DNA from: a virus | Taxonomy: Duplodnaviria > Caudoviricetes | Reading direction: 5' to 3' (one strand) | Length of the DNA stretch: 64,000 nt | IMG/VR virus record: IMGVR_UViG_3300042507_002545 | Coordinates: 1-64,000 of that record | Shown here: positions 1-49,703 of the stretch, piece by piece | How the letters are laid out: the number at the start of each line of letters is the position of its first letter | Numbering within the stretch: the stretch's first letter is position 1 | The notes under the pieces: generated by a model | Told to the model about the DNA's origin: nothing | Seen by the model: only the letters and a program-made list of their open reading frames with translations | The model's database searches: none | Made by a program: the position numbers and the translations under genes

Positions 1-1470
1 ATTTTCTTCACCGAGCCATCTACCACTAAGAGTTTCTTTAACTTTAGGCCAATTGGTACTAACACCTCTTACAAAAGTGTTATGCCTATTTAACAAACCT
101 CTAAAAGTCATGTCAGTAAGCATATCTGATTTTGCAACTCTTTGTATATCAGGTATATTATATCCATACTGTTTTGCCCAATGCTGTAAATTTTGAAGAT
201 CTTTAAATCTTCTTCCTGTGCTTCCAATTGCTCCAATATTTTTTACCGCATTTAAATCTGAAGATAAATTTTTAGCTCCTAGAAAGTTTAACGCATTGAG
301 ACCTCCTTCAAATGCTACATCTCTCCAGTCTCCTTCTCCAGCATTATATCTAGATACAGCTTGTCTAAAGTCAGATTCTGGATTTAAAAAATTATAAGTA
401 CCTACAGCTTGAAATGCTGGATTAACGACATTACCCAGTGTAACACCAGTACCTAATAACTCCAAACCTAATGTACTAGCAATAGCTGGAGCAGCTGCAT
501 ATAATCCTACTGCAGCATCTAAAGGTCCAACTGTTGTATTTGTTGTACCAAGCATGTTTGCTTTCTGCTGAGAATCTTGCTTATGTTGTTGATAAGCAGA
601 AAATTTTCTACTAAACTCCGTACTATTAATAGCTTTATCGGCCTGATCTAAAATGTATTTTTTATCTTTTAACTTAGAATTCAATTTCTTTTTTTCTTTT
701 TCATTTTTTGAAAAAGATATATCAAAAGTCAGTTGACCTATTTCGTCTTCTATTTTTTGTTTATTGTATGATGCATTTAAATAATCAGTTATGTCTGCAT
801 CACTTATTTCACTATTAGTAATATCTTCAGGACTCCATAAACTCATTCCTCCTATTTTTGGACCTGTACCAAAGCGACTTGTATATGCTGCTTTAGCATA
901 ACCAGTTTCTGGATTTACACTTTCTAAATCTTCTTGACTAGGTGTAGTAAGATGTTTTGCAAAACGTTCTTTTTTCTCCTGCTCTAAAACTTCTTTAGAT
1001 GGTTGCTTATAATTAGCATCCATCCAGTTTGCAATCTCTTTACCTCTTTCTAAATTATTCTTATTCTGAGCTGCTGTATTATATGCCCAATTTGCATTTC
1101 TATATTCATCTACTGAGTTCCATCCTGCTACCTGTGCTCTTCTGTTAAGCTCCATATTCTCAGCAGGACTTAAATTAACATCATAGCTAGAATTAAATTG
1201 ACCTGTAGTTTGGGCTTTTGGTAAAGTCTTTATTTTAACTCTTTTAAGATTTGGCATAGAGGTATTACCACCATAAGCCATCATAGGTATTTCATATACG
1301 GCAGTACCAGGAAATGTATAGTTACCTCCAGGCTGCATCATTTTAGTATTACCTAAATTATCAATACCCAATACAGGGTATGGTACACCCTTCATTGTTA
1401 TATCACCACTTGGAATAATAGTATCCTCACCAGGATATTTCCATTGTCCATATTTACTTACTTTAGCCAT
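1..1470 (-). CDS. Putative virion cargo/ejection protein, 3'-truncated by the window edge (not in ORF track)
   Basis: ATG at 1470 overlaps the TAA of the upstream gene (TAATG). My manual translation MAKVSKYGQWKYPGEDTIIPSGDITMKGVPYPVLGIDNLG...PMMAYGG stays open to base 1 and includes a hydrophobic Ala/Gly/Leu segment. Position after the muzzle gene matches crAss-like cargo genes. Confidence 0.7.
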   Translation of the reverse strand, partial: MAKVSKYGQWKYPGEDTIIPSGDITMKGVPYPVLGIDNLGNTKMMQPGGNYTFPGTAVYEIPMMAYGGNTSMPNLKRVKIKTLPKAQTTGQFNSSYDVNLSPAENMELNRRAQVAGWNSVDEYRNANWAYNTAAQNKNNLERGKEIANWMDANYKQPSKEVLEQEKKERFAKHLTTPSQEDLESVNPETGYAKAAYTSRFGTGPKIGGMSLWSPEDITNSEISDADITDYLNASYNKQKIEDEIGQLTFDISFSKNEKEKKKLNSKLKDKKYILDQADKAINSTEFSRKFSAYQQHKQDSQQKANMLGTTNTTVGPLDAAVGLYAAAPAIASTLGLELLGTGVTLGNVVNPAFQAVGTYNFLNPESDFRQAVSRYNAGEGDWRDVAFEGGLNALNFLGAKNLSSDLNAVKNIGAIGSTGRRFKDLQNLQHWAKQYGYNIPDIQRVAKSDMLTDMTFRGLLNRHNTFVRGVSTNWPKVKETLSGRWLGEEN

Positions 1471-20716: not shown

Positions 20717-20756
20717 AACTTGTTGGTTTTATTTTATTGGTTTTTGTAAAGGTAGT

Positions 20757-22446: not shown

Positions 22447-22472
22447 GTTTTTTTTGTTTATTTAAGGGTTAA

Positions 22473-35669: not shown

Positions 35670-36920
35670 TTATCTACTTATTTCTTCCCAATCCACTGAA
35701 ACATATGCCCCTAAAGTTCCACCTGTAGCATCTATTGCCATCTCAACTGCTAATTCAAAAGCAGTTCCTGTAAAACTATTTCTTTCAAGCTGAGTAGCAA
35801 ACAATGCTTCTTTTAATATATTGATACTTGGAGATCCTTGATTGGATGAATTTACATATCCTTGTGCTAATATTCTACCTCCTGTAACAGATGATCCTGT
35901 AAGGTTGTATTCTACAGATGAATCAGCACCTGCTGAAACCCAAGATCCTCCTGTTGTTATAGCAGATTGGACAACCCTCCATGCATAGTTTTTACCGTTA
36001 CCTAATCCTAATAAAGATATTGCTGTAGTTATAACTATAGCATCTAATGTAGTAGTTTTAAGTCTAATTCCTAGCATTGGATAATACGTTCCTGCTACAG
36101 CAAATGTTTTAGGAGCAGTAATAGATGTGCCAACTGCTTGTTGAGCTCCTCTAAGTTCATAACCACCTTCAGATATTGCACTAGAACAAACTTGTTTTAG
36201 TGTACTTGGACTAGCTGTTACTCCCGTATTAGTTATCTCATATCTAAGTGGTAATGAAGCAGTAGTGATATAAGTAGAAGTAATAAGGTTAGCATGATTA
36301 AACCTATGGCATACAATGAAGTTGCCATCTATAATAAAACCTACTCTTACAGTTCCTTCTCCTAACCACTCAATATCCATGAATAAAATCTGAGCCTTAG
36401 TAATATCTAAAGTTATTCCCGATGGACCATTACCGTTTAAAGGATCAGCATTCCAAGAAGCTTGGTTAACTACTGATTCTGTAACAATACCTGTGACTAA
36501 ACTTCTTTCAACAAAACTTAAAGTACTATTATTTAATTGAACATAAATTCCATTATCCGTACCAAAGTATCCTACTCTTTGTCTAAGATTAGTTTGAGCA
36601 GGAGCCATTACAAATGTGTTCATTACAAGTAATGACTTACCTGGTTGATATGACATTACTTTAAAAGTTTCTCTTAATACTTGAGATCCGCTTGTTGTAT
36701 TTACATTTAGATTTACTAGACCTTCATTTGCACTAAATACTGCTGTTCCTCCACTGGCTGTGGAAGTGGCCCAAAGTCCATTATCACGATATCTATGTGA
36801 AGAATCAAATAGAGTTAATGGGTTTGATACTCTTAGTCTACCAAACGCATCTGCTAACATTGGATCATTAGCAACTATTGATTGATTAGATATACCAGAA
36901 GTAGATATTATTGTACTCAT
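35670..36920 (-). CDS. Virion structural protein (DAFGRLRVS family)
   Basis: DAFGRLRVSNPLTLFDS, YQPGKS, DIEWLG.G.VR.GF, LPLRYEI and SEGG motifs common in phage virion proteins. Confidence 0.7.
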   Translation of the reverse strand: MSTIISTSGISNQSIVANDPMLADAFGRLRVSNPLTLFDSSHRYRDNGLWATSTASGGTAVFSANEGLVNLNVNTTSGSQVLRETFKVMSYQPGKSLLVMNTFVMAPAQTNLRQRVGYFGTDNGIYVQLNNSTLSFVERSLVTGIVTESVVNQASWNADPLNGNGPSGITLDITKAQILFMDIEWLGEGTVRVGFIIDGNFIVCHRFNHANLITSTYITTASLPLRYEITNTGVTASPSTLKQVCSSAISEGGYELRGAQQAVGTSITAPKTFAVAGTYYPMLGIRLKTTTLDAIVITTAISLLGLGNGKNYAWRVVQSAITTGGSWVSAGADSSVEYNLTGSSVTGGRILAQGYVNSSNQGSPSINILKEALFATQLERNSFTGTAFELAVEMAIDATGGTLGAYVSVDWEEISR

Positions 36921-37003
36921 TGCGCAATTGAAATAAGTAGTAACTCTCCACCTACTTTAGAGTATTTATCTCTTTCTTTAGGATTGCCGTTACCTAGTGC
37001 CAT
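36917..37003 (-). pseudogene. 28 aa ORF, possible internally deleted paralog of 35281-35631
   Basis: MALGNGNPKERDKYSKVGGELLLISIAQ resembles both ends of the 116 aa protein; ATGA-coupled to the next gene. Confidence 0.4.
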
Positions 37004-37013
37004 AGTGGTATAT

Positions 37014-37652
37014 TTAGAGTAGCTTAGTTATCTGCAAGTATGGTTGATTAAAGAAGGTGTTATCAAACACTGGATATCCTGATGGAACAGCACCCGCGTG
37101 AAGCACCACGATACCCACATAATCACCAACGTTAAATTTAAAAATACCTGAGCCTTGTTTTGTAGCTTCTCCATTACCAGATGTTCCGATATAACCCTGA
37201 TCTAAATACTCTAACTTAGTTCCTAAGTCATTAGATAGGGCGCTTGTTGTAACCGCTAGTCTCATAAAGTCAGTAGCGCCTGTCATATCATATGACGCGT
37301 ATCTGCCGTGAACAAGATAGTAACCTTCAACATTGATGCGTACTTTAGATCCTATTGGTGTATAAACACCAGTACCCTCATTATAAGCTAGGTTATTAAA
37401 AGGAGCTAAAAAGTCTACACCATTTAGTGTATTACTTAGTCCGCTAGTACCATTAATGTTTATTTTAACTACACTGTTTTCACCAAATTGACTGGTAAAA
37501 TCAGATACGGTCATACCATAAGACTGGTACTTGTCTCCGCGTTTAGCAAATGATGCGTTACTACCAAGAATAACGAGGTCCTGTGTAGGATCCTGTACTG
37601 TAGTTTTTACTAGTTTGTTTTTGGCTAAGTAGAGCCAGTTTAAAATGTCCAT
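37014..37652 (-). CDS. Fibre/decoration protein, MDILNWL family, with C1q/TNF-like C-terminus
   Basis: Shared ~55 aa N-terminal module; C-terminal F....YN.G..Y...RINVEGYYLV...GDYV pattern. Confidence 0.6.
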   Translation of the reverse strand: MDILNWLYLAKNKLVKTTVQDPTQDLVILGSNASFAKRGDKYQSYGMTVSDFTSQFGENSVVKININGTSGLSNTLNGVDFLAPFNNLAYNEGTGVYTPIGSKVRINVEGYYLVHGRYASYDMTGATDFMRLAVTTSALSNDLGTKLEYLDQGYIGTSGNGEATKQGSGIFKFNVGDYVGIVVLHAGAVPSGYPVFDNTFFNQPYLQITKLL

Positions 37653-37653
37653 G

Positions 37654-38289
37654 TTATCCTTTATTTATTGTTACTTCATAATAACTTACAACAGTTGAGT
37701 CTGCTACACTAACGTTCTGCATATAGAATATAAAGTACTGATCCTGAGCCCAGTTTATATTGTATGTGGAAACTGCTGTAGTAGAAACAGAATCATCATC
37801 AAAACCACCCGTGTTATAAGGAAATACCTCAGTAGAGGTACTTGACTTTACAACAAGTGTTCTCGATAATTGCCCAAATGCAGCATTAGCACCTAAAGCA
37901 GCAATGGCAATACCACTACCACCTACAGCATCTGATGTATTTACACTTACGTATTGAGCTGTTATTCCAGCTGTACCTGTTTTTCTACAACGAGTTCTTA
38001 CAAAGATGCTATCTCCTGGAGCTACCGTATTAGCAGGTATGAGTACACTTGCAGATTTAGTTGCTGCAGTAACCCCTGTTACAGTAGTACCATCAGCAGT
38101 TCTAATGAACTGCGGGTTAACACCTATTGCTAATGCAAAGTCTTCAGAAGGCATGGCATAAGATTGATACTTATCACCACGCTTTTGGAAAGATACATCA
38201 GCACCTAACACTACTAAGTCTTGTGGACTATCTAGTTTAGTTCTGATTAAGTTTTGTTTTTTTATGCCAAGCCAGTTTAGGATATCCAT
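37654..38289 (-). CDS. Fibre/decoration protein, MDILNWL family
   Basis: Same N-terminal module (DLVVLGA...RGDKYQSY) with a different beta-rich C-terminus. Confidence 0.6.
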   Translation of the reverse strand: MDILNWLGIKKQNLIRTKLDSPQDLVVLGADVSFQKRGDKYQSYAMPSEDFALAIGVNPQFIRTADGTTVTGVTAATKSASVLIPANTVAPGDSIFVRTRCRKTGTAGITAQYVSVNTSDAVGGSGIAIAALGANAAFGQLSRTLVVKSSTSTEVFPYNTGGFDDDSVSTTAVSTYNINWAQDQYFIFYMQNVSVADSTVVSYYEVTINKG

Positions 38290-38301
38290 TGTGTTTTAAT
38301 A

Positions 38302-39222
38302 TTAAGATGGGTAAACGCGTACTTCAATTGAACTTCCGTTCATTAAACTATCTGTTAAGGTACCAGATCCATTGTAAGTGTTAATATAAATTGCTCCAGA
38401 ATCAAAGCTAGCTGTTGCAATTCCAAAAATGTTGTAATCCTTTGTAAAGAAAACCATAACTCTTGCATTATTTGAACCAATACCTATTAAAGTTGAATTA
38501 CCTGCAAAATAATAATACCCTGTATTAAATCTTTGCCAGCTTCCACCAACACCTCCTAGAGTATTTTCTTTTACTGTAACCGTAGGATTTCCTGATCCGG
38601 ATTGTGATATTTTAGCAGAATAAACAAGATATGATCCTCCTGCACTACCTTGGGGAATACCTAAGTTTAAAACTTGAACAGGTGAACTTCCTGTAAGAGT
38701 TGCTGTAGCACTAGAACCTGCAGCCAATGTGGTAACAGTACCTATAGATAATGCATTGCTTGGGCCTGCAGGACCAGTTGGACCTTGTAATCCAGTAGCA
38801 CCCGTAGCTCCTGTTGCACCTTGTGCTGCAAGTAATGCCCAGTTAGTAGGGTCAGCATTAGGAGGTGTGGCAGATGGACCTACAGGATCTATACAGAACC
38901 ATGATGCTCCTGCATAACCCACAGCGTCATCTACAACATAAGTTCCTGAAGCAGACCATGATCCTTGCCAATTTAATCCAGCAGGACCTACAGGACCTGG
39001 TGCACCAGCAGGACCGGTTGGACCAGCAACACCCGCTGGACCTTGAGGACCGGCAGGCAATGTAGCAGCAAAGTCGTTAATTTCCATTGCGTAGTTTTGA
39101 TAAATATCACCACGCTTATTAGCACCTACTTTAGCACCAAAGATCATTAAATCTTTAGGGTTGTCAATAGAAGTACGTACAAATTTGTTTTTGGCTAGAT
39201 AAAGCCAGTTTAGAATGTCCAT
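38302..39222 (-). CDS. Collagen-repeat fibre protein, MDILNWL family
   Basis: Same N-terminal module; two (G-X-Y)n tracts flanking a W.G.W...Y...D.V.Y.G.SW carbohydrate-binding-like module. Confidence 0.75.
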   Translation of the reverse strand: MDILNWLYLAKNKFVRTSIDNPKDLMIFGAKVGANKRGDIYQNYAMEINDFAATLPAGPQGPAGVAGPTGPAGAPGPVGPAGLNWQGSWSASGTYVVDDAVGYAGASWFCIDPVGPSATPPNADPTNWALLAAQGATGATGATGLQGPTGPAGPSNALSIGTVTTLAAGSSATATLTGSSPVQVLNLGIPQGSAGGSYLVYSAKISQSGSGNPTVTVKENTLGGVGGSWQRFNTGYYYFAGNSTLIGIGSNNARVMVFFTKDYNIFGIATASFDSGAIYINTYNGSGTLTDSLMNGSSIEVRVYPS

Positions 39223-39286
39223 GAGTTGAGTAGATTAATGGATTAATATATACTATAATATAATAAATATCTGTAGAATAACCAAA

Positions 39287-39511
39287 TTATAATGATGTTA
39301 TTGTTTCCCACGCTGTTCCATTATAAACACAAAGTTTATTAAGTGTAGTATCATAAACTACCCATCCTCCTTGAGGCGAAGGGATTGCGTTCTTTTGTAC
39401 TGTGGTCATTTGTGGAAAAGGAAATGCTCTCATTGCTGGTCTACCATTAGGACCTGTTATTTCAAGACCTAAAGGACCATATGCATTACCATTAGAATCA
39501 GTTACTTGCAT
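39287..39511 (-). CDS. Small fibre-type protein
   Basis: FPQMTT.QKNAI.SP..G.VVYDTTLNKLCVYNGTAW, a motif common in Bacteroidota and phage fibre proteins. Confidence 0.65.
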   Translation of the reverse strand: MQVTDSNGNAYGPLGLEITGPNGRPAMRAFPFPQMTTVQKNAIPSPQGGWVVYDTTLNKLCVYNGTAWETITSL

Positions 39512-39512
39512 A

Positions 39513-39815
39513 TTACACTTCTTGTATTAATACTACATACTGGGTACCAGGAGCTGTTGTTAATATATATAACTGATCACCTGCATCAAATGAATATAGA
39601 TATGCATCTGTTAAAATATCTCCAGCCGCTAAGTTTACGGTATATACTGTAGTTGTTACCGGTCCAACTGCTTTTACTTTTCTTAATGTAACGGAATTAG
39701 CAGCTGGGTTACTCAATCTTATAGATATTGTATTTGCAGCATTTAAACCCCCAGGTCTAGTATAAATAAGATTACTTCCTGCAGGTAATGACCCTTCTAA
39801 TGATATTAGTCCCAT
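39513..39815 (-). CDS. Small beta-rich virion protein
   Basis: Likely start MGLISLEG at 39815, downstream of a TATATTTG box. Confidence 0.6.
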   Translation of the reverse strand: MGLISLEGSLPAGSNLIYTRPGGLNAANTISIRLSNPAANSVTLRKVKAVGPVTTTVYTVNLAAGDILTDAYLYSFDAGDQLYILTTAPGTQYVVLIQEV

Positions 39816-39830
39816 AGTGTAAAGATAATA

Positions 39831-39838
39831 CAAATATA
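39831..39838 (-). promoter_or_regulatory. Bacteroidota-type -7 promoter box in the divergent intergenic region
   Basis: TATATTTG on the minus strand at the head of the structural module. Confidence 0.55.
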
Positions 39839-39907
39839 AAAAAATTTCATATAATGTGCTGATTATTAAAATATTTTGCTTAAACTTGTATAAGATATAC
39901 ACATCTT

Positions 39908-40909
39908 ATGAATAAGATAACCGCTACTGGCAAACTCGCTAAACAGTATCTTAAGAAGTATCCTAGTCTTCCCATCCTTACAATTGCTAAACTTATGTAC
40001 GCTGAAAATGATTTGCACTTTAATAGTGTAGATCATGCACGTTCATTACTTAAGCGTCACTCTGGACTAGGTGGTAAAGAAACCAGAAAGAACGTAGATC
40101 CAGAATTACAAAGACCTATAACATATAACTATGCTCCATTTAATGACATACCAAAATCATATAAGTCTGGACCTAATGACTTTGAATTGCCAAGTGATGC
40201 TAATCACATTCTTGCTCTTTCTGATGTTCACTTTCCTTATCACGATGAAGAAGCTCTTGGTGCTGCTATACAATACGGCATTGATCAAAAGATTAATACG
40301 GTTATTCTCAACGGTGATATTTTAGACTTCTACCAGTTGTCACGGTTTGACAAGGACCCTTCTAAACCTAAGATGCAAGTAGAACTTGAACAAGGTAGAT
40401 GGTTTATGAAAGCACTACGCACAGCATTCCCTAAAGCGAGAATCTATTACAAGATTGGTAACCACGAAGATAGACTTGAAAAGTGGTTAAAGATTAAGGC
40501 GCCAGAATGGATTGGTATGGAGGAGTTTGAGTTAAAGATGTTACTTCGTTTTGGAGAAAACCAAATACAGCTTATCGATTCAAATGCTACAATAAAAGCT
40601 GGTAATCTTAACATTATTCACGGTCATGAATATTTAGGTGGAGGTACTATAAATCCAGCAAGAAATTTGTATCTTAAAGCTAAGGCCAGTACTATTTGCG
40701 GACACTTTCATAGAAAATCAGAGTTTGTTACTCGCGATATCAACAACAATATCCAAGGTGCTTGGACTACAGGTTGTTTATGTGAACTATACCCAGAGTA
40801 CATGAAAGGACACAGCGATTGGGTACATGGTTTTGCGGTTATTAAGATAGAGAAGGATGGCACCTTTTCAGTAGATAACAAAATGATTATTGACGGAGTA
40901 GTATCATAA
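39908..40909 (+). CDS. Calcineurin-like metallophosphoesterase
   Basis: SDVH, NGDILD, GNHE, HGHE and GHFH motifs all present. Confidence 0.9.
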   Translation: MNKITATGKLAKQYLKKYPSLPILTIAKLMYAENDLHFNSVDHARSLLKRHSGLGGKETRKNVDPELQRPITYNYAPFNDIPKSYKSGPNDFELPSDANHILALSDVHFPYHDEEALGAAIQYGIDQKINTVILNGDILDFYQLSRFDKDPSKPKMQVELEQGRWFMKALRTAFPKARIYYKIGNHEDRLEKWLKIKAPEWIGMEEFELKMLLRFGENQIQLIDSNATIKAGNLNIIHGHEYLGGGTINPARNLYLKAKASTICGHFHRKSEFVTRDINNNIQGAWTTGCLCELYPEYMKGHSDWVHGFAVIKIEKDGTFSVDNKMIIDGVVS

Positions 40910-40911
40910 CT

Positions 40912-41133
40912 ATGGCAACAACTATTAGAGCTGGAATTTATATAGACCCACTCAGTGAGGAAGAGTCTACCCCTGAGATCTATATTGATCACAGCATGAT
41001 CCAGATATATAGTCAGGAGGATATCCTTGTTGCCCAAATTAGTTATGAAGAACTCCGCGGTATTTTAGCCATCATGGCGGCGGAACAAGAAAAGACTCAC
41101 CTGCGTATTCAGGCTATTGGTCGGAACAACTAG
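40912..41133 (+). CDS. Hypothetical protein, 73 aa
   Basis: ATG 2 nt after the previous stop. Confidence 0.6.
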   Translation: MATTIRAGIYIDPLSEEESTPEIYIDHSMIQIYSQEDILVAQISYEELRGILAIMAAEQEKTHLRIQAIGRNN

Positions 41134-41137
41134 TCTT

Positions 41138-41772
41138 GTAACAAATTTAGCGTAAAATTGTTACCACACTAAAGTATGTTTTAGCAGTCATTAACCCCAG
41201 TTTTCTGGATAATGTATAGTATACCATACTATAATGTGGTTTATAAGAAACAAAAAACCTCAGTTTTATACCCTGTAAGGGACATTATCATGTATAGAGA
41301 GTATACTCCGTACCTCTCCGGGTACGTTTTATAGTATTGATGTCAGGATAAACCTGGCACCATTGATATGAGATAGATGTTATAAACCACATCTGTCACA
41401 AATATGTTAAACTTTTGTGACAAGCTTGATGGGTACTGGAGGGGTACTTGGGGGAAAGTATAGTAAACTTTTGCGACAGCTATAGTGGAAAATAATCACC
41501 AGAATCAGGCTTTTAGTGGAAAATAATCCCCAACTCCCTTGCGCTAATCCGCCATTACTGGAAAATTTTAGGAGTATTGGCGAACTATAGAGTGCCAAAC
41601 TCTGTAACAAAACATGGACAAACTCGGAAGTTTACCGAGTTACCCCCTATAATTTTGCATGAATTTTTCCAGATTTTGCATGCAGATACATATAGTATTG
41701 CCACATGAGCCCATATTTATATGTAGGAGCATATAGGGAGAATGTCCAGTTTTTTGCGCAATAAACTTGACA
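41138..41772. repeat. Array of unrelated short inverted repeats
   Basis: Examples: 41138-41164, 41215-41233, 41394-41422, 41621-41641, 41743-41772. Also a 15 bp direct repeat TAGTGGAAAATAATC at 41483 and 41514. Confidence 0.7.
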
Positions 41773-42136
41773 CCTTTGGTTCTCCTACATATACCCCCCT
41801 AGGGAAGTAGACAATCAACATACCCCCGGTAGTAAGGTTAGGTGGGGACACCCCCGGGAGGATGGTGTAGGGAATTTTTTATGGGGGTAGGGGATTTATA
41901 ATGTGGGAGATGATGTGAGGGGTATACAACAAATCAACCCCCGGCTTTAAACTTTTTAGGGGGTACCCCCCATGAAATTTGAAACATTTCATTTAAAAGT
42001 TGAAATCCAAAGAAAACATTTTGCTATGTAGAAAATGTTTATACGTCATATAACTATGACATGCTTGATTTGAGTTGCACAACAAAGACTTGAGTTGTTG
42101 TGTTGTGCCACCCGACCCCGACCACCACCCCTAGAT

Positions 42137-42169
42137 ATGTTGCAAGCAACATCATTGATACAACATATC
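42137..42169 (+). promoter_or_regulatory. Candidate early promoter 1 (hairpin + ATACAACATATC)
   Basis: ATGTTGC-AA-GCAACAT followed by ATACAACATATC upstream of the ATG at 42188. Confidence 0.6.
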
Positions 42170-42187
42170 ATTCATAATCTTAAGATA

Positions 42188-42391
42188 ATGAATAACTTTT
42201 TAAACTCGCTAGTAGGTCATACTGACCTATACCAAGCTAAAAAGCAGGTGATTCGTGAAATCATTGCTTTCACCAAGTTTCCCAAATCACGCACAAGCCG
42301 TGAATTTCTTTGGGGCAAAGACATTCAAGAGCTTGCGGCAATGCACCGTGAGCTATTGACATACCAAACGGTGCAATTGGAAATCGCTTAG
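42188..42391 (+). CDS. Early hypothetical protein, 67 aa
   Basis: Likely start MNNFLNSL; the stop codon lies in the terminator loop. Confidence 0.65.
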   Translation: MNNFLNSLVGHTDLYQAKKQVIREIIAFTKFPKSRTSREFLWGKDIQELAAMHRELLTYQTVQLEIA

Positions 42392-42404
42392 GCGATTTCT
42401 TTTT
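42380..42404 (+). terminator. Intrinsic terminator
   Basis: GAAATCGC-TTAG-GCGATTTC-TTTTT. Confidence 0.85.
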
Positions 42405-42431
42405 GCTTTGCAATTATTAATACAACATATC
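42403..42431 (+). promoter_or_regulatory. Candidate early promoter 2
   Basis: TTGC-TTT-GCAA, 6 nt spacer, ATACAACATATC. Confidence 0.6.
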
Positions 42432-42447
42432 TTTCATAATCATAATT

Positions 42448-42630
42448 ATGAAAAAGTTCATGTTAATCATTACAATTATCGCATGGCTAGACAGCCTTGC
42501 GCTAATCTTCATTACTAACACTTTGCCGCATATTAGCAGTAAACCATTCGTGAATGGCTTCCTGATATTCTGCGCAGGATTCATCTCGTACTTGATATAC
42601 TATCAATTACGCGATATGAGAAAGGCTTAG
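42448..42630 (+). CDS. Early small membrane protein (2 TM)
   Basis: Two hydrophobic helices in 60 aa; has its own promoter-like motif and terminator. Confidence 0.7.
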   Translation: MKKFMLIITIIAWLDSLALIFITNTLPHISSKPFVNGFLIFCAGFISYLIYYQLRDMRKA

Positions 42631-42648
42631 GCCTTTCTCTTTTCTTTT
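42618..42648 (+). terminator. Intrinsic terminator
   Basis: GAGAAAGGC-TTAG-GCCTTTCTC-TTTTCTTTT. Confidence 0.85.
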
Positions 42649-42675
42649 GCTGCGCAATAGGTAATACACCATATA
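42647..42675 (+). promoter_or_regulatory. Candidate early promoter 3
   Basis: TTGC-TGC-GCAA, 6 nt spacer, ATACACCATATA. Confidence 0.6.
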
Positions 42676-42710
42676 CTAATAAAATCAGTTTCACTTAATT
42701 TAAATTTATC

Positions 42711-43082
42711 ATGGTAGAACCAATCAAAATTCAAATCTCGTTATCAGATTTATTAGACGTCATCAACGCAAGCAGCAATCCTATAGTTGCAGCTGCTGTT
42801 CTTGATGGCTCTTATGTAAGCCCACTTCAAGATAAAGATCTTGTAGGTCGCTTTCATAAGAACTTTAACATCAAGAAAGATGACGACACGCGTGACCATT
42901 ATTTGCTCTTGTTCCAAGGCTACAATAAATGGTCTGATGAGGTGACCTTTAAGAAAGATCACCCCAACGCGTGGTCCGGCAACAACACCATGTCTTTAGC
43001 AGAATGGCGTGCTGCCTATGACTTTGAGCCTTCTACACTTGGCAAGGCTGATACCAAGGCATCAACCGTTGGCCAATTGTAA
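42711..43082 (+). CDS. Early hypothetical protein, 123 aa
   Basis: ORF flanked by the promoter-like motif and a terminator. Confidence 0.75.
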   Translation: MVEPIKIQISLSDLLDVINASSNPIVAAAVLDGSYVSPLQDKDLVGRFHKNFNIKKDDDTRDHYLLLFQGYNKWSDEVTFKKDHPNAWSGNNTMSLAEWRAAYDFEPSTLGKADTKASTVGQL

Positions 43083-43089
43083 GGCTCAT

Positions 43090-43117
43090 GAAACCCCTTC
43101 GGGGGTTTCTTTTTTTT
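43090..43117 (+). terminator. Intrinsic terminator
   Basis: GAAACCCC-TTCG-GGGGTTTC followed by T8. Confidence 0.9.
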
Positions 43118-43145
43118 GCTTCGCAAATAGATAATACTACATATC
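43115..43145 (+). promoter_or_regulatory. Candidate early promoter 4
   Basis: TTTGC-TTC-GCAAA, 6 nt spacer, ATACTACATATC. Confidence 0.6.
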
Positions 43146-43169
43146 CTTGAAAATCAATTATCAAATTTT

Positions 43170-43580
43170 ATGAAAAATTTAACAATCAAATTTCAGCGTT
43201 CTTACCGCAAAGCAGGTAAAACGCCCGGCGCCCCTTCTCGCCTAATCTTCGTATATCTTGTAACTGGTACTGCAGAGCAGTTAACCGAGTTCCGCGATAT
43301 CCAAAGCGCAAATCTGCGTGAAGATGAAAAGGGAAACCCTTTGTTCTTCACTAGCAGATATGCTGGCGAGACAGCGATGCTCACGCTTAACCATGCTGGT
43401 ACTGACTACTATGTAGACAATACCGAGATGGATAAGCAGGCATCACTGGTTGAACAGTTTGGCGGTAATCTTGGTCAGGCAATTGCTATGCAGATTGCTG
43501 CCCAAGCCACCGGCAAAGTTCAACAGGTCGCCCCCGCTGCGGTACCCGCTGACAAGACACAAGGTCTTGGCACCGTGTAA
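43170..43580 (+). CDS. Early hypothetical protein, paralog A
   Basis: Collinear with 44018-44410 (EDEKG.PLFFTSRY, TEMDKQA..V.QFGGNLGQA, GLGTV). Confidence 0.85.
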   Translation: MKNLTIKFQRSYRKAGKTPGAPSRLIFVYLVTGTAEQLTEFRDIQSANLREDEKGNPLFFTSRYAGETAMLTLNHAGTDYYVDNTEMDKQASLVEQFGGNLGQAIAMQIAAQATGKVQQVAPAAVPADKTQGLGTV

Positions 43581-43591
43581 CTACGCGGTAC

Positions 43592-43621
43592 ACCCTACTC
43601 TTCGGAGTAGGGTTTTTTTTT
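43592..43621 (+). terminator. Intrinsic terminator
   Basis: ACCCTACTC-TTCG-GAGTAGGGT followed by a T-tract. Confidence 0.9.
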
Positions 43622-43827
43622 GCTCTGCAAGTTTTTATATACAAGTCTTGTCCAGTGTTACTTGTACAATAGTAATCGTATATAATTATATCCGTAGGAA
43701 GCCGTAAATGTATACACGTATATAGTTATTATTGGATTCCTATGTATATACCTCTCCCGGGACACAGACACACTTATGCACTGATACACAAGACATTAGC
43801 GTATTTGTATACTTGTATTCCTATTAA

Positions 43828-43945
43828 CGCTCGCGCTTCGCGCTCGCTTTTTAATGCTTCGCATTTATTTTAGCTCGCTTCGCTCGCTTTATTCGCTACG
43901 CGAATTTTTTAGATACTACTCATCTTCGCTGCGCTCGATGAGTTC
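43828..43945 (+). repeat. Cluster of GC-TNC-GC mini-hairpins ending in candidate promoter 5
   Basis: GCGC-TTC-GCGC, AATGC-TTC-GCATT and ATTCGC-TAC-GCGAAT, followed by ATACTACTCATC at 43913. Confidence 0.6.
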
Positions 43946-44017
43946 GCCGAGTACTGAGTACAGGTGAACCGGGTAAGCGTGAATAGTAATCAATTTATAA
44001 TCAATTAATTAGGGCTT

Positions 44018-44410
44018 ATGAGCACACTACAATTGACATTTGCGCGCCAGTATCGCAAGAAAACTACTGGCAAGTTGGTATTCGTGTATAACGTGAAGGG
44101 CACTGCCGCACAGTTAGATGAGTACCGTGATGCACAGGGAAGTTTCCTTGTGGAAGATGAGAAAGGACAACCATTGTTCTTTACATCTCGCTATGTGGGT
44201 GAGGTTTGCCCGCTTGTTGCTAACCATAACGGGGACGGATTCTATGCCGACACCACGGAGATGGACAAGCAAGCTGCGATGGTGCAGCAGTTTGGTGGTA
44301 ATTTGGGCCAAGCGTTGGCTGCACAGATTGCTGCAAGCGTTGCGGGTAAAGGTGCTGCTACCTCACAAGTGGCAAGTGCACCAGTGTCTAAGGGATTAGG
44401 CACAGTTTAA
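44018..44410 (+). CDS. Early hypothetical protein, paralog B
   Basis: Paralog of 43170-43580. Confidence 0.85.
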   Translation: MSTLQLTFARQYRKKTTGKLVFVYNVKGTAAQLDEYRDAQGSFLVEDEKGQPLFFTSRYVGEVCPLVANHNGDGFYADTTEMDKQAAMVQQFGGNLGQALAAQIAASVAGKGAATSQVASAPVSKGLGTV

Positions 44411-44712
44411 TGCTAACTAATTGAGTATCAGTGTGTTTGTGAGTTAATAACACACTGATGCTCTTTCTTATTAGTATTGCAATGTACAATGAAGTGCGAC
44501 AAATGAACGCGCACTAGATAGCTAAGGGATTGTAGTACGAGTACTCTTCCCTGTATTAATGCATCATAACTTACTTCACAAGGGTAAGCAGTTGTAATAG
44601 AATTCCTAATGGAGAACAAGTTTAGATACTTGACGTCTAGTTATCCTACATGGTATTACAACTGAATGCAGAGTGGTACAATAGAATGTTTAACCCCTTA
44701 ATCTTTATTACT

Positions 44713-44943
44713 ATGGAGTTTGAATACTCAAGTGTTACAAGTGCAGGTTATATATCGGCCTCTGAAGTTAGTTCTTCCGATGTACTTCCCGCTAAAGAGT
44801 TGCTTATGTCAAACTGCAGGCCTTATAAGTTTTACCAAGTGGTTGAGCATATGGCTAATGGTTCCGTTGCTTGTATAGACCAGGATTGTAATCCTGTATC
44901 TTTATCTATAAATGATGTAGCAATTGTTAATTGGTATGAGTAA
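44713..44943 (+). CDS. Hypothetical protein
   Basis: Likely start MEFEYSS after a TAACCCCTTAA leader. Confidence 0.55.
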   Translation: MEFEYSSVTSAGYISASEVSSSDVLPAKELLMSNCRPYKFYQVVEHMANGSVACIDQDCNPVSLSINDVAIVNWYE

Positions 44944-45124
44944 GTTGATTTTGTTTTTCTACTTGTTAACCGGGAAGGTTGAGAAGGTAGACGGATTGTA
45001 TACGATACATACTACTGAGAGTTCTGTTATTGAGTACGCTTGTGAGGGTGAAGTATTAGAGTATATAGAGACAGGTGTCTTTAGATATGATGATAACCTC
45101 GCAAAGCCTGGTGAGTTGGAATAG
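44936..45124 (+). CDS. Hypothetical protein
   Basis: Likely start MSKLILFF overlapping the previous stop. Confidence 0.55.
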   Translation: MSKLILFFYLLTGKVEKVDGLYTIHTTESSVIEYACEGEVLEYIETGVFRYDDNLAKPGELE

Positions 45125-45182
45125 GTAGGAAGCCGGGGTTTTTGATGATGATTTTCCCCGGCGTTCCTATATTTTTGAAAAA

Positions 45183-45578
45183 ATGTTTAACTTAATACTT
45201 AATACCGTGGAAAAGAAAGGTTTTATTATGGGCTTGGTTATAGCCTCATGTGTATGGATTACTACTATTGTATTGATTCTACGCACACAAGATAACCCGA
45301 TAATCATAGAGAAATGTGACTTTACTGAAGATGACATTATAGACACAGAGTTTGAACAACTGATGATTAACACTCGTGTTAATGCTTATGCGCATGGTTA
45401 TTATACCTGTTTACGGGATACAAGACCTGATATACATATGGCATATATGTCTTGTATTGTGCAATTAGAAACAGTACAGGGTGATGAAGCATTTAACGCT
45501 ATTGTTGATGCTGAATGTTCAAATCGTGGTCTGAGTGTTGAAGACAAGGAATATTTACGTACTCTATTATTAGATTAA
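45183..45578 (+). CDS. Membrane-anchored hypothetical protein
   Basis: N-terminal TM segment FIMGLVIASCVWITTIVLIL. Confidence 0.65.
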   Translation: MFNLILNTVEKKGFIMGLVIASCVWITTIVLILRTQDNPIIIEKCDFTEDDIIDTEFEQLMINTRVNAYAHGYYTCLRDTRPDIHMAYMSCIVQLETVQGDEAFNAIVDAECSNRGLSVEDKEYLRTLLLD

Positions 45579-45579
45579 A

Positions 45580-45798
45580 ATGACAAGAGAACTTGCTAGA
45601 ATTAAGACCATACAGAAGTTTACTAACTTACTTGATGGCACGTTGTTACCAGGATATAGTGTGGCTCAAGTAATTAGTTACTATGAGTCACAGCTTCTTG
45701 GTGTCCCTACTGATAATATTAGTAGGGTAGATGGTATCACCGCCAACTTCATGGAGGATTATATAAATAATCTCGATGATGGTGATCAAATATTGTAA
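45580..45798 (+). CDS. Hypothetical protein, 72 aa
   Basis: ATG 1 nt after the previous stop. Confidence 0.6.
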   Translation: MTRELARIKTIQKFTNLLDGTLLPGYSVAQVISYYESQLLGVPTDNISRVDGITANFMEDYINNLDDGDQIL

Positions 45799-45867
45799 AG
45801 CGAAGAATGCATACAGCACTATAAACAAACTATGGTAAAGTTAAAACGCATTCTGTATCTTTACAAT
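45792..45867 (+). ncRNA. Candidate CAGCAC-loop RNA, copy 1
   Basis: Outer stem ATTGTAAAG/CTTTACAAT, internal loop, inner stem AGAATGC/GCATTCT; loop begins ATACAGCACTATAAA. Confidence 0.65.
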
Positions 45868-45869
45868 CT

Positions 45870-45974
45870 ATTATGTGTTTAGTTGTAGGTAGCAATACCA
45901 TTTAAAGATGTGAATACTATATTTAGAGCGGGTGCTTAACACATCCCAAGTATAGTTACAACTAAATGCATAAT
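45870..45974 (+). ncRNA. Candidate pseudoknotted three-way-junction RNA
   Basis: 18 bp closing stem with two G-U pairs, GGTA-GCAA-TACC GNRA hairpin, 9 bp stem and a GATGTG/CACATC pseudoknot. Confidence 0.55.
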
Positions 45975-46045
45975 TATTTATAGCCCATAAGGGCAAATTT
46001 TAAAATTATATACCTTACATTATTCAATTGAAGTTAAATGGTGAC

Positions 46046-46197
46046 GCCTATAATCTATTAGGCTATGTGTATTTACCCGAAGGTCAGTCTACCGGGATAT
46101 TGCAGGAATGTAATAGTTACACAAATGATTGGTAAAAGAACTGTGACAGGTTCTAACCAAAGGTCGTTTGAAAGTTAAGGGTGCATGTCAAAGCACC
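46046..46197 (+). ncRNA. Candidate multi-hairpin structured RNA
   Basis: Stems GCCTA/TAGGC; TGTGTA/TACACA enclosing CCCG/CGGG and TATTGCA-GGAA-TGTAATA; TTGGT..AGAAC/GTTCT.ACCAA; GGTGC/GCACC. Confidence 0.45.
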
Positions 46198-46204
46198 GCA
46201 AGCT

Positions 46205-46289
46205 TGTTCTTATGTTAGTGAAGGATAGTTCAGCACTATAAAAACTACAATTATAAGGTTAAACAACTATTCTGTTTAACATAAGAGCA
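46205..46289 (+). ncRNA. Candidate CAGCAC-loop RNA, copy 2
   Basis: Outer stem TGTTCTTATGTTA/TAACATAAGAGCA, inner stem AGGATAGTT/AACTATTCT; loop begins CAGCACTATAAA. Confidence 0.65.
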
Positions 46290-46293
46290 TTTA

Positions 46294-46415
46294 GCACATG
46301 AAAGAATGAATCAGCACTGTAAAAAAATTACAATGCACGAGACAATAAAAGTCTCAAGGGAAAGGTAGGCCACAACAAGTTAGTTGTTAGGCTCTCTTCA
46401 TTCTGTTGTATGTGC
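46294..46415 (+). ncRNA. Candidate CAGCAC-loop RNA, copy 3 (expanded loop)
   Basis: Outer stem GCACATG/TATGTGC, inner stem AGAATGAA/TTCATTCT; loop TCAGCACTGTAAA plus GAGAC/GTCTC and ACAAC/GTTGT sub-hairpins. Confidence 0.65.
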
Positions 46416-46483
46416 AAAAGCCTAGTAGTGATACTCGTGGCCTGCCAATCTTAAATTATTGTTTAACCAAAACCCTTTACGCA

Positions 46484-47872
46484 ATGGATAATTTTACCAA
46501 CGCAATGTTTTCTAATGATAGTCTTACCAATAACGGCGCAGTTACTCATAGTACTGCAGGTAATTACTGTCTTGACCTGTTCTTTTTAGCAGGTGCGAGC
46601 CGTTTTATGTCTGAAGAAGATATCTTAAAAGCATTTATCAAGGCTTATCGTGAAGATAAGTTAACTGCTATTAAGATTCTATTTTGGGCACGCGATGCAC
46701 GTGGTGGTGCAGGGGAGAAGAGATTCTTCCAAGTGATAATGAGAAATCTATTAGTAGCAGACCCTGAAGTATATGAGCAAATTGCTATACATATACCAAC
46801 GTTTGGCTATTGGAAAGATATATTCATCATTGAAAGACCAACTGATAATACCCTTAATTGGTTGAGTATTCAACTGAAAGAGAATGAGAATGCTAATCTA
46901 TTGGCTAAATGGTTCCCTCGCAAGGGTGAATGGTTTGTGGCAATGCATAAGTATCTTGGTGTATCAGCAGGTACATTCCGTAGAAGACTTACTTCTATGT
47001 CTAATACCGTAGAGCAAAAGATGTGTGCTAATGATTGGGAATCTATTTCTTATTCACAAGTACCTTCTGTTGCAGGTAAGAGATATGCCCAGTCCTTTAC
47101 TAAACACGATTATGTAAGATACGCCTCTTATATTAGCGATGTTATGGAAGGTAAGGAGAAGATTAATGCTTCAGTATTATTCCCAAGTGACCTTGTAGCA
47201 AAAGTATTTACAGAGCATGATACCTTTGCATACAATGCTATGTGGAAGAATCTTCCTAACTATATGGAAGGTTGTACTGAAAGAATCTTACCTGTTTGCG
47301 ATGTTAGTGGTAGTATGACGGGACAACCTATGGAAGTATCTATAGGATTGGGCCTCTATATCAGTGAGCGCAATGAAGGTCCTTTCAAGGATTTAGTGTT
47401 GACATTTAGTGAATCACCGCAATTTCATAAGATAAGCGGTATGACATTAAGTGAGAAAGCACATAATCTTAGACAGGCTGATTGGGGTATGAATACGGAT
47501 TTAACCAAAACATTCACAGTGTTACTAGATCGTGCTGTTGCAGGTAAAGTAGCACAGGAAGATATGCCTACCAAGTTACTGATTATTAGTGACATGGAGT
47601 TTGACCAAGCCTGTGGTAAGCGTACTAACTTTGATACTATCAAGGATATGTATGCACACTGCGGTTATGAGATGCCGGGTATAATCTTTTGGAATGTTAA
47701 TGGTCGCCTCGGTAATGTACCTGTGAAGGCTAACACACCAAACACTGCCCTTGTTAGCGGGTATAGTCCAAGTATTATTACAAATATCTTGGGCGGTAAG
47801 GATTTGAGTCCTATAAGTGTGATGATGGAAACTATTGGCAATGTGAGATACAACTGTATCAAACTTGACTAA
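46484..47872 (+). CDS. TROVE/Ro60-like vWA protein (DUF2828-type)
   Basis: Likely ATG at 46484. LDLFF, LFWARDARGGAGEKR, GYWKD, AKWFPR and VPSVA motifs; vWA MIDAS DVSGS...NTD...ISDMEFD; IFWNV...VSGYSP. Confidence 0.85.
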   Translation: MDNFTNAMFSNDSLTNNGAVTHSTAGNYCLDLFFLAGASRFMSEEDILKAFIKAYREDKLTAIKILFWARDARGGAGEKRFFQVIMRNLLVADPEVYEQIAIHIPTFGYWKDIFIIERPTDNTLNWLSIQLKENENANLLAKWFPRKGEWFVAMHKYLGVSAGTFRRRLTSMSNTVEQKMCANDWESISYSQVPSVAGKRYAQSFTKHDYVRYASYISDVMEGKEKINASVLFPSDLVAKVFTEHDTFAYNAMWKNLPNYMEGCTERILPVCDVSGSMTGQPMEVSIGLGLYISERNEGPFKDLVLTFSESPQFHKISGMTLSEKAHNLRQADWGMNTDLTKTFTVLLDRAVAGKVAQEDMPTKLLIISDMEFDQACGKRTNFDTIKDMYAHCGYEMPGIIFWNVNGRLGNVPVKANTPNTALVSGYSPSIITNILGGKDLSPISVMMETIGNVRYNCIKLD

Positions 47873-48811: not shown

Positions 48812-48842
48812 CAATATTTTTTTTCAATTAAAAAACCAATTT

Positions 48843-49613: not shown

Positions 49614-49703
49614 GGGTGAAGGACCTATGGCATTGCGGGAGTTTATCGATTTCTCCTGCTTTGCTAATAGGGTTAATTATGTATCAATTTAAAAACCAAT
49701 AGA

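Follow-up and report, generated by a model that had tools for sequence, protein, structure and literature searches.

An array of small genes in an uncultured lake crAss-like phage is headed, gene by gene, by a GC-closed DNA mini-hairpin and an AT-rich box, and on balance these paired elements are best explained as phage-specific early promoters, in which the box is the core and the hairpin an addition of one subclade, read by the crAss-type RNA polymerase (RNAP) of the virion. The array lies at positions 42137-43924 of a 64,000-nucleotide stretch of DNA (the window), which is the first 64 kb of the 97,988-bp IMG/VR virus record IMGVR_UViG_3300042507_002545 (the contig, or G000). The observation is real and lies far beyond chance. 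That the elements are promoters is very likely, and that the virion RNAP is the enzyme which reads them is probable, if less firmly so. The early timing of the cassettes is suggested by their position, by their small uncharacterised open reading frames (ORFs) and by a switch of promoter type at 45.17 kb.

Sites 1-4 (42137-43613) form four single-gene cassettes on the + strand, each consisting of a mini-hairpin, 5-6 nucleotides (nt), the box ATACNNCATAT, a small ORF and an intrinsic terminator. Site 1 opens with the 7-bp hairpin ATGTTGC-AA-GCAACAT (42137-42152), from which a gap of 5 nt leads to the box ATACAACATATC (42158-42169) and to ORF 1 (67 amino acids (aa), 42188-42391), ending in a terminator with a 9-bp stem, a loop that holds the stop codon, and then a T-run (42379-42400). 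At site 2, TTGC-TTT-GCAA (42403-42413) is followed after 6 nt by ATACAACATATC (42420-42431), the hydrophobic ORF 2 (60 aa, 42448-42630) and an intrinsic terminator (42618-42639); at site 3, TTGC-TGC-GCAA (42647-42657; GCGCAGC on the template strand) stands, again with a gap of 6 nt, before ATACACCATATA (42664-42675), ORF 3 (123 aa, 42711-43082) and its terminator (43090-43109). Among orthologues of site 3 the loop varies between TGC, TAC, TTC and TCC, with T and C constant and the middle base changing. Site 4 combines TTTGC-TTC-GCAAA (43115-43127), whose template strand holds GCGAAGC, with ATACTACATATC (43134-43145) 6 nt on, ORF 4 (136 aa, 43170-43580) and a terminator (43592-43613). ORFs 1-3 belong to no known family, and none of the small early proteins could be assigned to one with PHROGs or Pfam. 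The elements at 42379, 42618, 43090 and 43592 fit the definition of an intrinsic terminator (a GC-rich stem-loop and then a T-run, close behind a stop codon), and terminator-like sites in the region number 15, as against 3.3 +/- 1.8 in shuffles. The T-runs of these four terminators lead directly into the hairpins that follow.

Further copies on the + strand depart from this plan. Site 5 (43620-43650) has the hairpin TTGC-TCT-GCAA (43620-43630), a gap of 8 nt and a degenerate box, ATACAAGTCTTG, at 43639, with no ORF after it; relatives all keep the hairpin, and the box is not conserved. Site 6 has ATTCGC-TAC-GCGAAT (43891-43905; GCGTAGC on the template strand), a gap of 7 nt and the variant box ATACTACTCATC (43913-43924), upstream of ORF 5 (130 aa, 44018-44410), a paralogue of ORF 4 at 56% identity. 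The 3' half of this box pairs with 43937-43943 (ACTCATC/GATGAGT), and a compensatory change in the relative L005 keeps the pairing. Neither site 1 nor site 6 has a terminator upstream; site 1, which also lacks a T-run there, has orthologous sites in L019 and L025. Counted from the first base of the box, the ORF begins 28-47 nt on at sites 1-4 and 105 nt on at site 6. An extra candidate, P0, consists of an AT-rich 9-bp inverted repeat (AAACATTTT/AAAATGTTT, 42014-42022/42032-42040) and the box ATACGTCATATA (42041-42052); no ORF follows it and the downstream AA described below is absent, and its box and context are kept in L020, L021 and L024. The sequence-only reading that drew attention to this region had located six hairpins and their boxes, and all were found where it placed them, including the degenerate copy after the 43592 terminator (site 5) and three template-strand loops of the form GC-GNA-GC (GCA, GAA and GTA, at sites 3, 4 and 6); the seventh box at 42041 and the continuity of T-runs with hairpins were not part of it.

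Chance was gauged with 60 first-order Markov simulations of the 97,988-bp contig. The composite TTGC-N2-3-GCAA-N5-8-ATAC occurs five times in the contig, against a simulated mean of 0.05 and a maximum of 2, and the genuine composite copies all lie at 42.0-43.9 kb on the + strand. Its parts are likewise concentrated: TTGCN3GCAA has five copies, four of them in the array (simulated mean 1.8, maximum 4), and ATACNNCATAT has six on the + strand and none on the - strand, five of the six within 42041-43134 (simulated mean 0.8, maximum 3). Eleven of the contig's 48 GC-closed mini-hairpins fall in the 42-44 kb bin. The heptamer GCGNAGC is found 14 times on the template strand of rightward genes and once in the opposite orientation, with 7 of the 14 within 42649-43928; the other copies of GCTNCGC and TTGCN3GCAA in the contig lie within coding sequence and have no box.

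The arrangement recurs in related genomes. An exact-pattern scan of IMG/VR returned 12 stretches, about the level of chance, with L005 (three hits) and L006 (the contig of L015) as the only contigs of relatives. Protein searches with the 136-aa gene led to 3 viral and 49 metagenomic loci, at 96% to about 38% identity. In all 21 loci of at least 67% identity, the homologue of this gene is preceded by TTTGC-TWC-GCAA(A), 6-7 nt and ATACTAC..., whereas all 28 loci with an identity of 46% or below lack this combination. Sites were then counted in the contig and in the loci of 22 close relatives, one locus per contig, with a loose regular expression for the box. This gave 188 unique contexts, 148 on the + strand and 40 on the - strand; a GC-closed hairpin stood 3-10 nt upstream of the box in 89 of them, all but one (88/89) on the early-gene strand, with a gap of 6 nt in 59 and of 7 nt in 18. 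By their downstream sequence the 88 distinct sites represent 28 cassette types, that is, different genes, in about 20 metagenomic relatives, with up to 11 sites per relative. Because the expression used for the box fixes some columns by construction, a search anchored on the hairpin alone was also made, and it found ATAC 16-19 nt downstream in 76 of 96 TTGCN3GCAA contexts, as against 0 of 98 reversed ones.

A consensus was drawn from the 56 sites with a gap of 6 nt and a loop of three, counting from the box start as position 0. A T-run at -23 to -18 leads into the stem, which reads TTGC at -17 to -14 and GCAA at -10 to -7 around a loop T-N-C at -13 to -11; a semi-conserved spacer follows at -6 to -1, its final A present in 49 of 56. 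The box, ATAC-N-(A/C)-C-(A/T)-T-A-T-(C/A), spans 0 to 11, and beyond it come T at 13 (48/56), an invariant AA at 18-19 (56/56) and T at 20 (45/56). The whole consensus is roughly 44 bp long, with conservation reaching about 32 nt past the loop centre. Since the AA stays in register with the box while the ATG shifts over 28-47 nt, it is part of the signal and not of the translation start.

The 136-aa protein and its 130-aa paralogue are the most widely conserved early genes of the clade, found in 49 metagenome loci and with relatives in four RNA libraries. The four freshwater metatranscriptome runs contain 5-9% of the sampled words, and RNA contigs at 88% likeness cover only relatives of the 136-aa gene and its paralogue, a gap in such coverage carrying no weight. 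Among GenBank phages, a near-identity search with the DNA of 41000-46000 gave no match, nor did tblastn with the 136-aa protein. An AlphaFold2 model of that protein from 26 sequences predicts a small beta-barrel and a long helix, with a confidence score (pLDDT) of 76; Foldseek against the PDB returned nothing at E <= 0.001. A fold name was considered and set aside as too weakly indicated, the best VIA-align Z score being 4.1, with small beta-barrels including the Pf3 single-stranded DNA-binding protein at Z 3.9.

Transcription may begin at either of two positions. We favour a start at the invariant AA at +18/+19, because its conservation is fixed relative to the box and not to the start codon; this would place the box near -18 to -7 and the centre of the loop near -30. 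A plausible alternative, by analogy with phage N4, is a start on the conserved A that precedes ATAC, 11 nt past the centre of the loop, in which case the box would supply the first transcribed letters. Such a start would explain the inverted repeats that follow the boxes, as well as the pairing of the 3' half of the site 6 box. Inverted repeats of at least 7 bp follow the box in 9 of 28 cassette types (shuffles: mean 1.5, maximum 6), and in about 12 of 28 a repeat of the form YCATAAT-N-ATTATGR holds the start codon, its arms co-varying even into the second codon (TTTCATAAT/ATTATGAAA versus GTTCATAAT/ATTATGAAC, for example). The ATG of ORF 1 lies within an imperfect inverted repeat at 42170-42193, and the start codon of ORF 2 within the repeat TTTCATAAT/ATTATGAAA at 42432-42453. 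If transcribed, the start-codon repeat would sequester the AUG. These repeats, with their compensatory changes, and the site 6 pairing would also suit a reading in which the conserved elements act in RNA, as a processing site, a 5' stabiliser, a translation signal or, for the hairpin, an accessory to the upstream terminator, the more so as the hairpin begins within the terminator's T-run at four sites. Yet little read-through RNA would be expected past strong terminators just ahead of the elements, none precedes sites 1 and 6, late-gene terminators are without a mini-hairpin, and the AA is fixed in relation to the box, not to the ATG. Further, UNC triloops are not known to have special stability in RNA, unlike GNA in DNA. 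An RNA-level role is thus very improbable.

Whether the hairpin acts as a structure on the template strand is about evenly balanced. In its favour, the core 4 bp are paired in all 78 aligned distinct sites, and one stem pair switches from U-A (69) to C-G (9) without ever being unpaired, giving TCGC/GCGA in place of TTGC/GCAA. The covariation score of 0.176 exceeds the 0.110 of shuffles (0 of 500 reach it) and those of all slid registers. The three-base loops are TNC in 62 of 83 cases (TTC 29, TAC 22, TCC 6, TGC 5) and in 20 of 27 cassette types, and TNC on the top strand corresponds to GNA on the template, the loop of the GCGNAGC mini-hairpin type. Copies of TTGCN3GCAA that have no box carry TNC in only 2 of 20 cases; 7 of these 20 lie inside the 136-aa gene, with TAT or GAT loops. 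Similarly, GCTNCGC outnumbers GCGNAGC by 248 to 7 in the loci of close relatives (125 kb, not de-duplicated) and by 15 to 6 in those of distant relatives (114 kb), so that the template-strand GNA loops first recognised at three sites gain support from both the loop bias and the strand asymmetry. The type is exceptionally stable, with two G-C pairs and a GNA loop in the account given by the available part of the source, which adds that standard thermodynamic models do not account for this stability (PMC13037366). The 4-bp stem TTGC/GCAA is present in 52 of 89 sites and stems of 5-7 bp in about 30; in first cassettes, where no T-run precedes it, the stem lengthens to 5-7 bp, as ATGTTGC/GCAACAT or (A)CTTGC/GCAAG(T). 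Outside the core, the three pairs that come next are open in 30-39 of the 78 sequences.

At the onset of infection only the host enzyme or an enzyme packaged in the virion can be available. The sigma-A consensus of Bacteroidota has the -7 element TAnnTTTG, with TTTG near -33. TAnnTTTG boxes stand upstream of 7 of 40 other genes of the phage that have an upstream gap and of none of the 5 cassette genes, in agreement with the original remark that the hairpin-linked motif is unlike the boxes used elsewhere; one such box, at about 45170, comes directly after the last early terminator. The proposal of a distinct, phage-specific promoter class is strengthened in turn by the modular and strand-specific placing of the motif before non-homologous small ORFs in about 20 relatives. 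The phage itself has major capsid, portal and terminase genes with only distant matches to crAss-like phages, the capsid protein being 28.8% identical to that of Leptolyngbya phage Lbo-JY46 and 23-25% identical to those of gut crAss phages. Its structural genes run leftward from 39.8 kb, and its early and replication genes rightward from 39.9 kb. The host is probably a member of the Bacteroidota from fresh water. A candidate RNAP gene, a giant leftward ORF with the motif GGDFDIDK, lies outside the window at contig 89397-97988; it matches 'putative RNAP' genes of crAss-like phages and, weakly (tblastn, E 3e-4), g066 of phage phi14:2, with which it has the DFDID motif in common. Record G002, which is colinear with G000, has a polymerase region 93% identical to that of G000 and a complete polymerase gene (36303-46283, 3326 aa). 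From the comparison, some 19 kb that code for large leftward virion proteins (2063, 1492, 864, 905 and 1075 aa) are missing between the two ends of G000, which is therefore incomplete (CheckV completeness 82%); what begins in the open ORF at window 1-1470 is the homologue of the 1075-aa gene of G002 and not the polymerase. That the polymerase gene would be found beyond the window had been anticipated, and both its position and the colinearity of G002 place it there.

The homologous enzyme of phi14:2, gp66, makes early, rifampicin-resistant transcripts and transcribes single-stranded M13 and denatured phage DNA, though not double-stranded M13, according to the part of the report available (bioRxiv 10.1101/2020.03.07.982082). 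Such a preference for single-stranded templates is in keeping with a template-strand hairpin that starts melting next to an AT-rich box. The rival candidate is the host RNAP, directed by an alternative host sigma factor or a phage specificity factor, with the T-run and TTGC serving roughly as a -35 element and the box with (C)ATAAT roughly as a -10. TTGC does resemble the start of a -35 hexamer, and YATAAT lies 15-20 nt past the box start in many cassettes. A sigma-70 scan (TTGACA, 16-18 nt, TATAAT, at least 9 of 12 matches) flags one of the six sites, 42417-42446 (TTAATA-18-CATAAT, 9/12), and sigma-70-like matches in the region number 25, against 18.3 +/- 3.9 in shuffles. Each unit also ends at a standard bacterial intrinsic terminator, and the gp66 transcripts of phi14:2 have no reported motif in common. 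Nevertheless, reading by the host enzyme is unlikely. The cassettes have neither the TAnnTTTG nor the TTTG that the phage uses elsewhere; in the -10-like stretch it is the two central A's that are invariant, unlike the positions conserved in sigma-70 promoters; TTGCAA and CATAAT are 21 bp apart; the contig, itself incomplete, has no match to Sigma70_r2; the box changes between phage clades; and the bias to TNC loops plays no part in a duplex -35 element.

Several observations weigh against promoters of this composite kind read by the virion enzyme. In phi14:2, the one system of this kind that has been studied biochemically, no common motif was found upstream of the early transcripts made by gp66, as far as the available part of that report goes (bioRxiv 10.1101/2020.03.07.982082), and in our own scan the phi14:2 early region (1-9.7 kb) had no repeated box, mini-hairpin array or terminated single-gene units, its only repeats being TAAAACTAA-like words just before start codons. 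The classical hairpin-plus-T terminator at the end of each unit is a signal of bacterial RNAP. The array and the RNAP gene occur together in a single record, G000. The RNA runs consist of assembled contigs and give no 5' ends, starts or strand. As to the hairpin, some cassettes of a sister subclade, L034-L036, have the box directly behind the terminator with no mini-hairpin between; the site 5 hairpin is kept in relatives that have no conserved box; and the arrays of distant relatives have no mini-hairpin. The stem TTGC/GCAA is nearly invariant in sequence, which would also fit a duplex recognition site, and its covariation rests on few events. TNT loops occur in 18 of the 76 box-linked TTGCN3GCAA sites. 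Finally, at five of six sites the DNA folding energies from a nearest-neighbour model are -2 to -3 kcal/mol, and the z scores -0.06 to -1.1; site 1 reaches z -3.6, but its predicted fold pairs the box with the left arm of the hairpin, a pairing that is not kept in L019 or L025 and was rejected.

Much of this evidence would also suit a reading in which the box alone is the promoter and TTGC-N3-GCAA a duplex operator for a dimeric regulator of the phage or the host, for instance one that shuts off the early genes. The stem is palindromic and almost invariant, box-only cassettes exist, the palindrome is kept at site 5 without a box, and the folding energies are weak. A symmetric dimer site, however, leaves the asymmetric T..C centre of 62 of 83 loops unexplained, and likewise the near absence of the heptamer in the opposite orientation (248 versus 7). 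The alternative stems TCGC/GCGA, CTTGC/GCAAG and ATGTTGC/GCAACAT change the sequence and retain the pairing, and a heptamer island at 43835-43934 contains 2-bp GC-TNC-GC units, which are not palindromic sites. An operator of this sort is quite unlikely, less so than an RNA-level role and more so than reading by the host enzyme.

Distant relatives bear on which part of the composite promoter is essential. They have the same layout, that is, a terminator, a box, about 30-45 nt, an ATG and one small gene, with C-rich boxes of 4-8 copies each (TTACACCCYTTAT, TAACCCTCTTT, GCACCCATTAT, ACGCCCATTA, TAACCCCTTG and CAACCCCCTT). Loci L038-L065 and L151-L153 show arrays of 4-8 single-gene units with a lineage-specific C-rich box behind the terminator, and in L051 a fixed AACAGCC stands 4-5 nt upstream of its box. 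Because these arrays use other boxes and no hairpin, it is probably the box, and not the hairpin, that forms the core of the signal, the hairpin being an addition of one clade. The records G003 and G006, both complete genomes, have C-rich box arrays and RNAPs 52% and 43% identical to that of G000 over the catalytic region. Box type thus appears to differ between clades as the polymerase does, a co-variation that is suggestive only; with both features of the hairpin-linked kind present in G000 alone, it amounts to three genomes and is confounded by overall divergence. The polymerase has 88 relatives in IMG/VR. The contig ends of G002 fall in the stretch equal to 33.2-56.3 kb of G000, so that the whole of it is missing from this record, the array and the 136-aa gene included. 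Within the window, a sequence at 44694-44708, GTTTAACCCCTTAAT, lies shortly before the ATG at 44714 and is similar to the C-rich boxes of distant relatives (AACCCCTT type), and by virtue of this resemblance the phage may keep a second, older type of box.

The mechanism that would join these features is as follows. Each promoter would drive one small gene ending at its own intrinsic terminator. The AT-rich box, A-ATAC-N-A/C-C-W-T-AT-M with a T two positions after the box end and AA at 18-19, would be the sequence-specific core, and the GC-closed mini-hairpin 6 nt upstream would be the addition of a subclade, acting as a DNA structure of the GCGNAGC type on the template strand. The hairpin would extrude from under-wound or single-stranded DNA beside the easily melted T-run; once formed, it would mark the site and keep the neighbouring box single-stranded and accessible; and the enzyme that then reads the site would be the two-barrel crAss-type RNAP carried in the virion.

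A mini-hairpin island surrounds site 6 on the + strand (43833-43934), with GCTNCGC at 43835, 43856, 43877, 43895 and 43928, spaced by 21, 21, 18 and 33 nt. Four of its five heptamers have no box, and it is kept or expanded in every close relative (nine copies between 6634 and 6730 in L017, for example); the sequence-only reading had not mentioned it. The island could be a loading zone for the polymerase, a site that excludes single-stranded DNA-binding protein, or an origin. These boxless heptamers, together with the 1-kb non-coding region and its iteron-like repeats just upstream of the array, raise the further possibility that the template-strand mini-hairpins are replication or priming signals, at primase or origin sites comparable to G4-type origins or ssiA; mini-hairpins are described at phage replication origins in the part of the source available (PMC13037366). 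Across 28 cassette types, however, the hairpins are tied one-to-one and at fixed spacing to boxes, ORFs and terminators, and an origin is not expected before every small gene, which leaves replication signals as the most remote of the explanations weighed here.

Other elements of the neighbourhood deserve a brief account. The non-coding region at 41134-42136, directly upstream of the array and conserved in relatives, contains TAGTGGAAAATAATC-like repeats at 41483, 41514 and 41555, two copies of AAACTTTTG(T/C)GACA, three of ACCCCCGG (41822, 41850 and 41937), the palindrome GGGGTACCCC, the loop-less palindrome TTGCGCAA (41754) and, at 41924, a sequence very close to the box (ATACAACAAATC). The region may serve as an origin, for packaging or in regulation. 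Downstream, 44545-44690 and 45800-46400 hold the conserved non-coding elements TAATGCATCATAA-hairpin-TGTAATA and ATTACA..GAATGCAGAG, which are kept even in G003, with a polymerase only 52% identical, and which lie upstream of a DUF2828/DUF7788 protein (46406-47872) that PHROGs labels 'RNA-binding protein'. These elements may be non-coding RNAs with a protein partner; they have no Rfam match, and the Rfam search at E <= 1 gave nothing beyond three chance rows below threshold. Across the contig, many genes of the middle and late classes lack a Shine-Dalgarno sequence and carry AAAACCAA(C/T) no more than about 15 nt ahead of the ATG (22447-22472, 20717-20740, 48830-48842 and 49690-49703, for example). 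In phi14:2, TAAAACTAA occupies the same place before the ATG, and AAAACCAA(C/T) is possibly a translation-initiation signal of Bacteroidota phages.

To our knowledge, few viruses of gut and aquatic Bacteroidota are as abundant as the crAss-like phages, all of which carry a giant virion RNAP. Full-text literature searches, which did not extend to the supplementary files of the phi14:2 study, returned no published promoter for an enzyme of this type. The array is a candidate for this undefined start signal, with 88 sites, 28 cassette types, a consensus of about 44 bp and a strand-biased structural element, and its natural variants (box-only, hairpin-only and with alternative stems) are a ready-made mutational series. 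Tentatively, and with somewhat less than even confidence, these would be the first promoters that can be defined for a virion RNAP of the crAss type, recognised in single-stranded template by means of a mini-hairpin landmark and a start-setting box, convergent with those of N4 and with clade-specific boxes that co-evolve with the polymerase. If true, this would supply a rule for annotating the early genes of uncultured crAss-like genomes and would show how a QDE-1-like polymerase locates the positions at which it starts.

Among known systems, the T7 group offers the likeness of a conserved, phage-specific box, about 20 bp long, that is repeated from gene to gene, and the opening letters of the box may resemble the upstream portion of a T7-group promoter. 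A T7-like RNAP was not found here, PF00940 having no match in the roughly 82%-complete contig, a search in which the control genomes gave none either. The promoters of T7-group single-subunit RNAPs are duplex and extend from -17 to +6, in the available part of the source (PMC4496689). Closer in polymerase is phi14:2 of Cellulophaga, whose enzyme is homologous and whose early region likewise has rightward small genes and long non-coding stretches; it differs in having no common upstream motif, in the view its authors express in the part available, and no array of terminated single-gene units in our analysis. The d(GCGNAGC) mini-hairpin is matched on the template strand by GCGAAGC, GCGCAGC and GCGTAGC at sites 4, 3 and 6 and again in the island, whereas the template loops of sites 1, 2 and 5 are TT, AAA and AGA, and hairpin formation in the array is predicted.

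The Thermus phage P23-45 provides a parallel in promoter logic. Its virion RNAP gp96, which is fused to the tape measure, has an AT-rich motif upstream of 14 start sites, as stated in the portion of the report available (bioRxiv 10.1101/2022.12.01.518664). From that portion, both systems have a two-barrel virion RNAP and a conserved AT-rich motif repeated before the genes expressed first, and the P23-45 motif is found only in relatives that have the enzyme. The polymerase family and the host phylum differ, and so does the footing of the two cases, the start sites of P23-45 having been mapped and the array being known from its sequence. A term search of the P23-45 text available gave no mention of a hairpin, and the terminators it describes carry a special 26-nt motif, whereas those of the array are of the ordinary hairpin-plus-T kind.

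The comparison with N4 is the most instructive. Three early promoters of N4, P1-P3, are read by an injected virion RNAP and have a GNA hairpin on the template strand, with a stem of 5-7 bp, the hairpin centred at -11 and conservation from -17 to +1, as set out in the available part of one source (PMC4496689), and they contain GCGGAGC according to that of another (PMC13037366). Extrusion of the N4 hairpin depends on gyrase and SSB. The array is not a member of the N4 family, given that its stems are mostly 4 bp and not 5-7 bp, that its conserved part, a box of 12-20 nt, lies downstream of the hairpin, and that the only polymerase found for it is of another fold, being of the two-barrel crAss type and unrelated to the T7-like enzyme of N4. 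Further, the loop centre is often a pyrimidine here (GTA in 22 sites), the copies number 6-12 per genome, one per gene, where N4 has three, and the hairpin is dispensable in related cassettes of an array known from sequence. The likeness lies elsewhere. In both, as far as the N4 sources are available, the early region of a phage with a giant RNAP carries a small hairpin with conserved sequence beside it; at the level of sequence both have a GNA triloop on the template strand, GGA or GAA in N4 and GAA, GTA, GGA or GCA here; and in both the polymerase prefers single-stranded templates, a property known for the crAss type from the homologue gp66. If true, the array would therefore be a second, independent case of hairpin-guided initiation of transcription.

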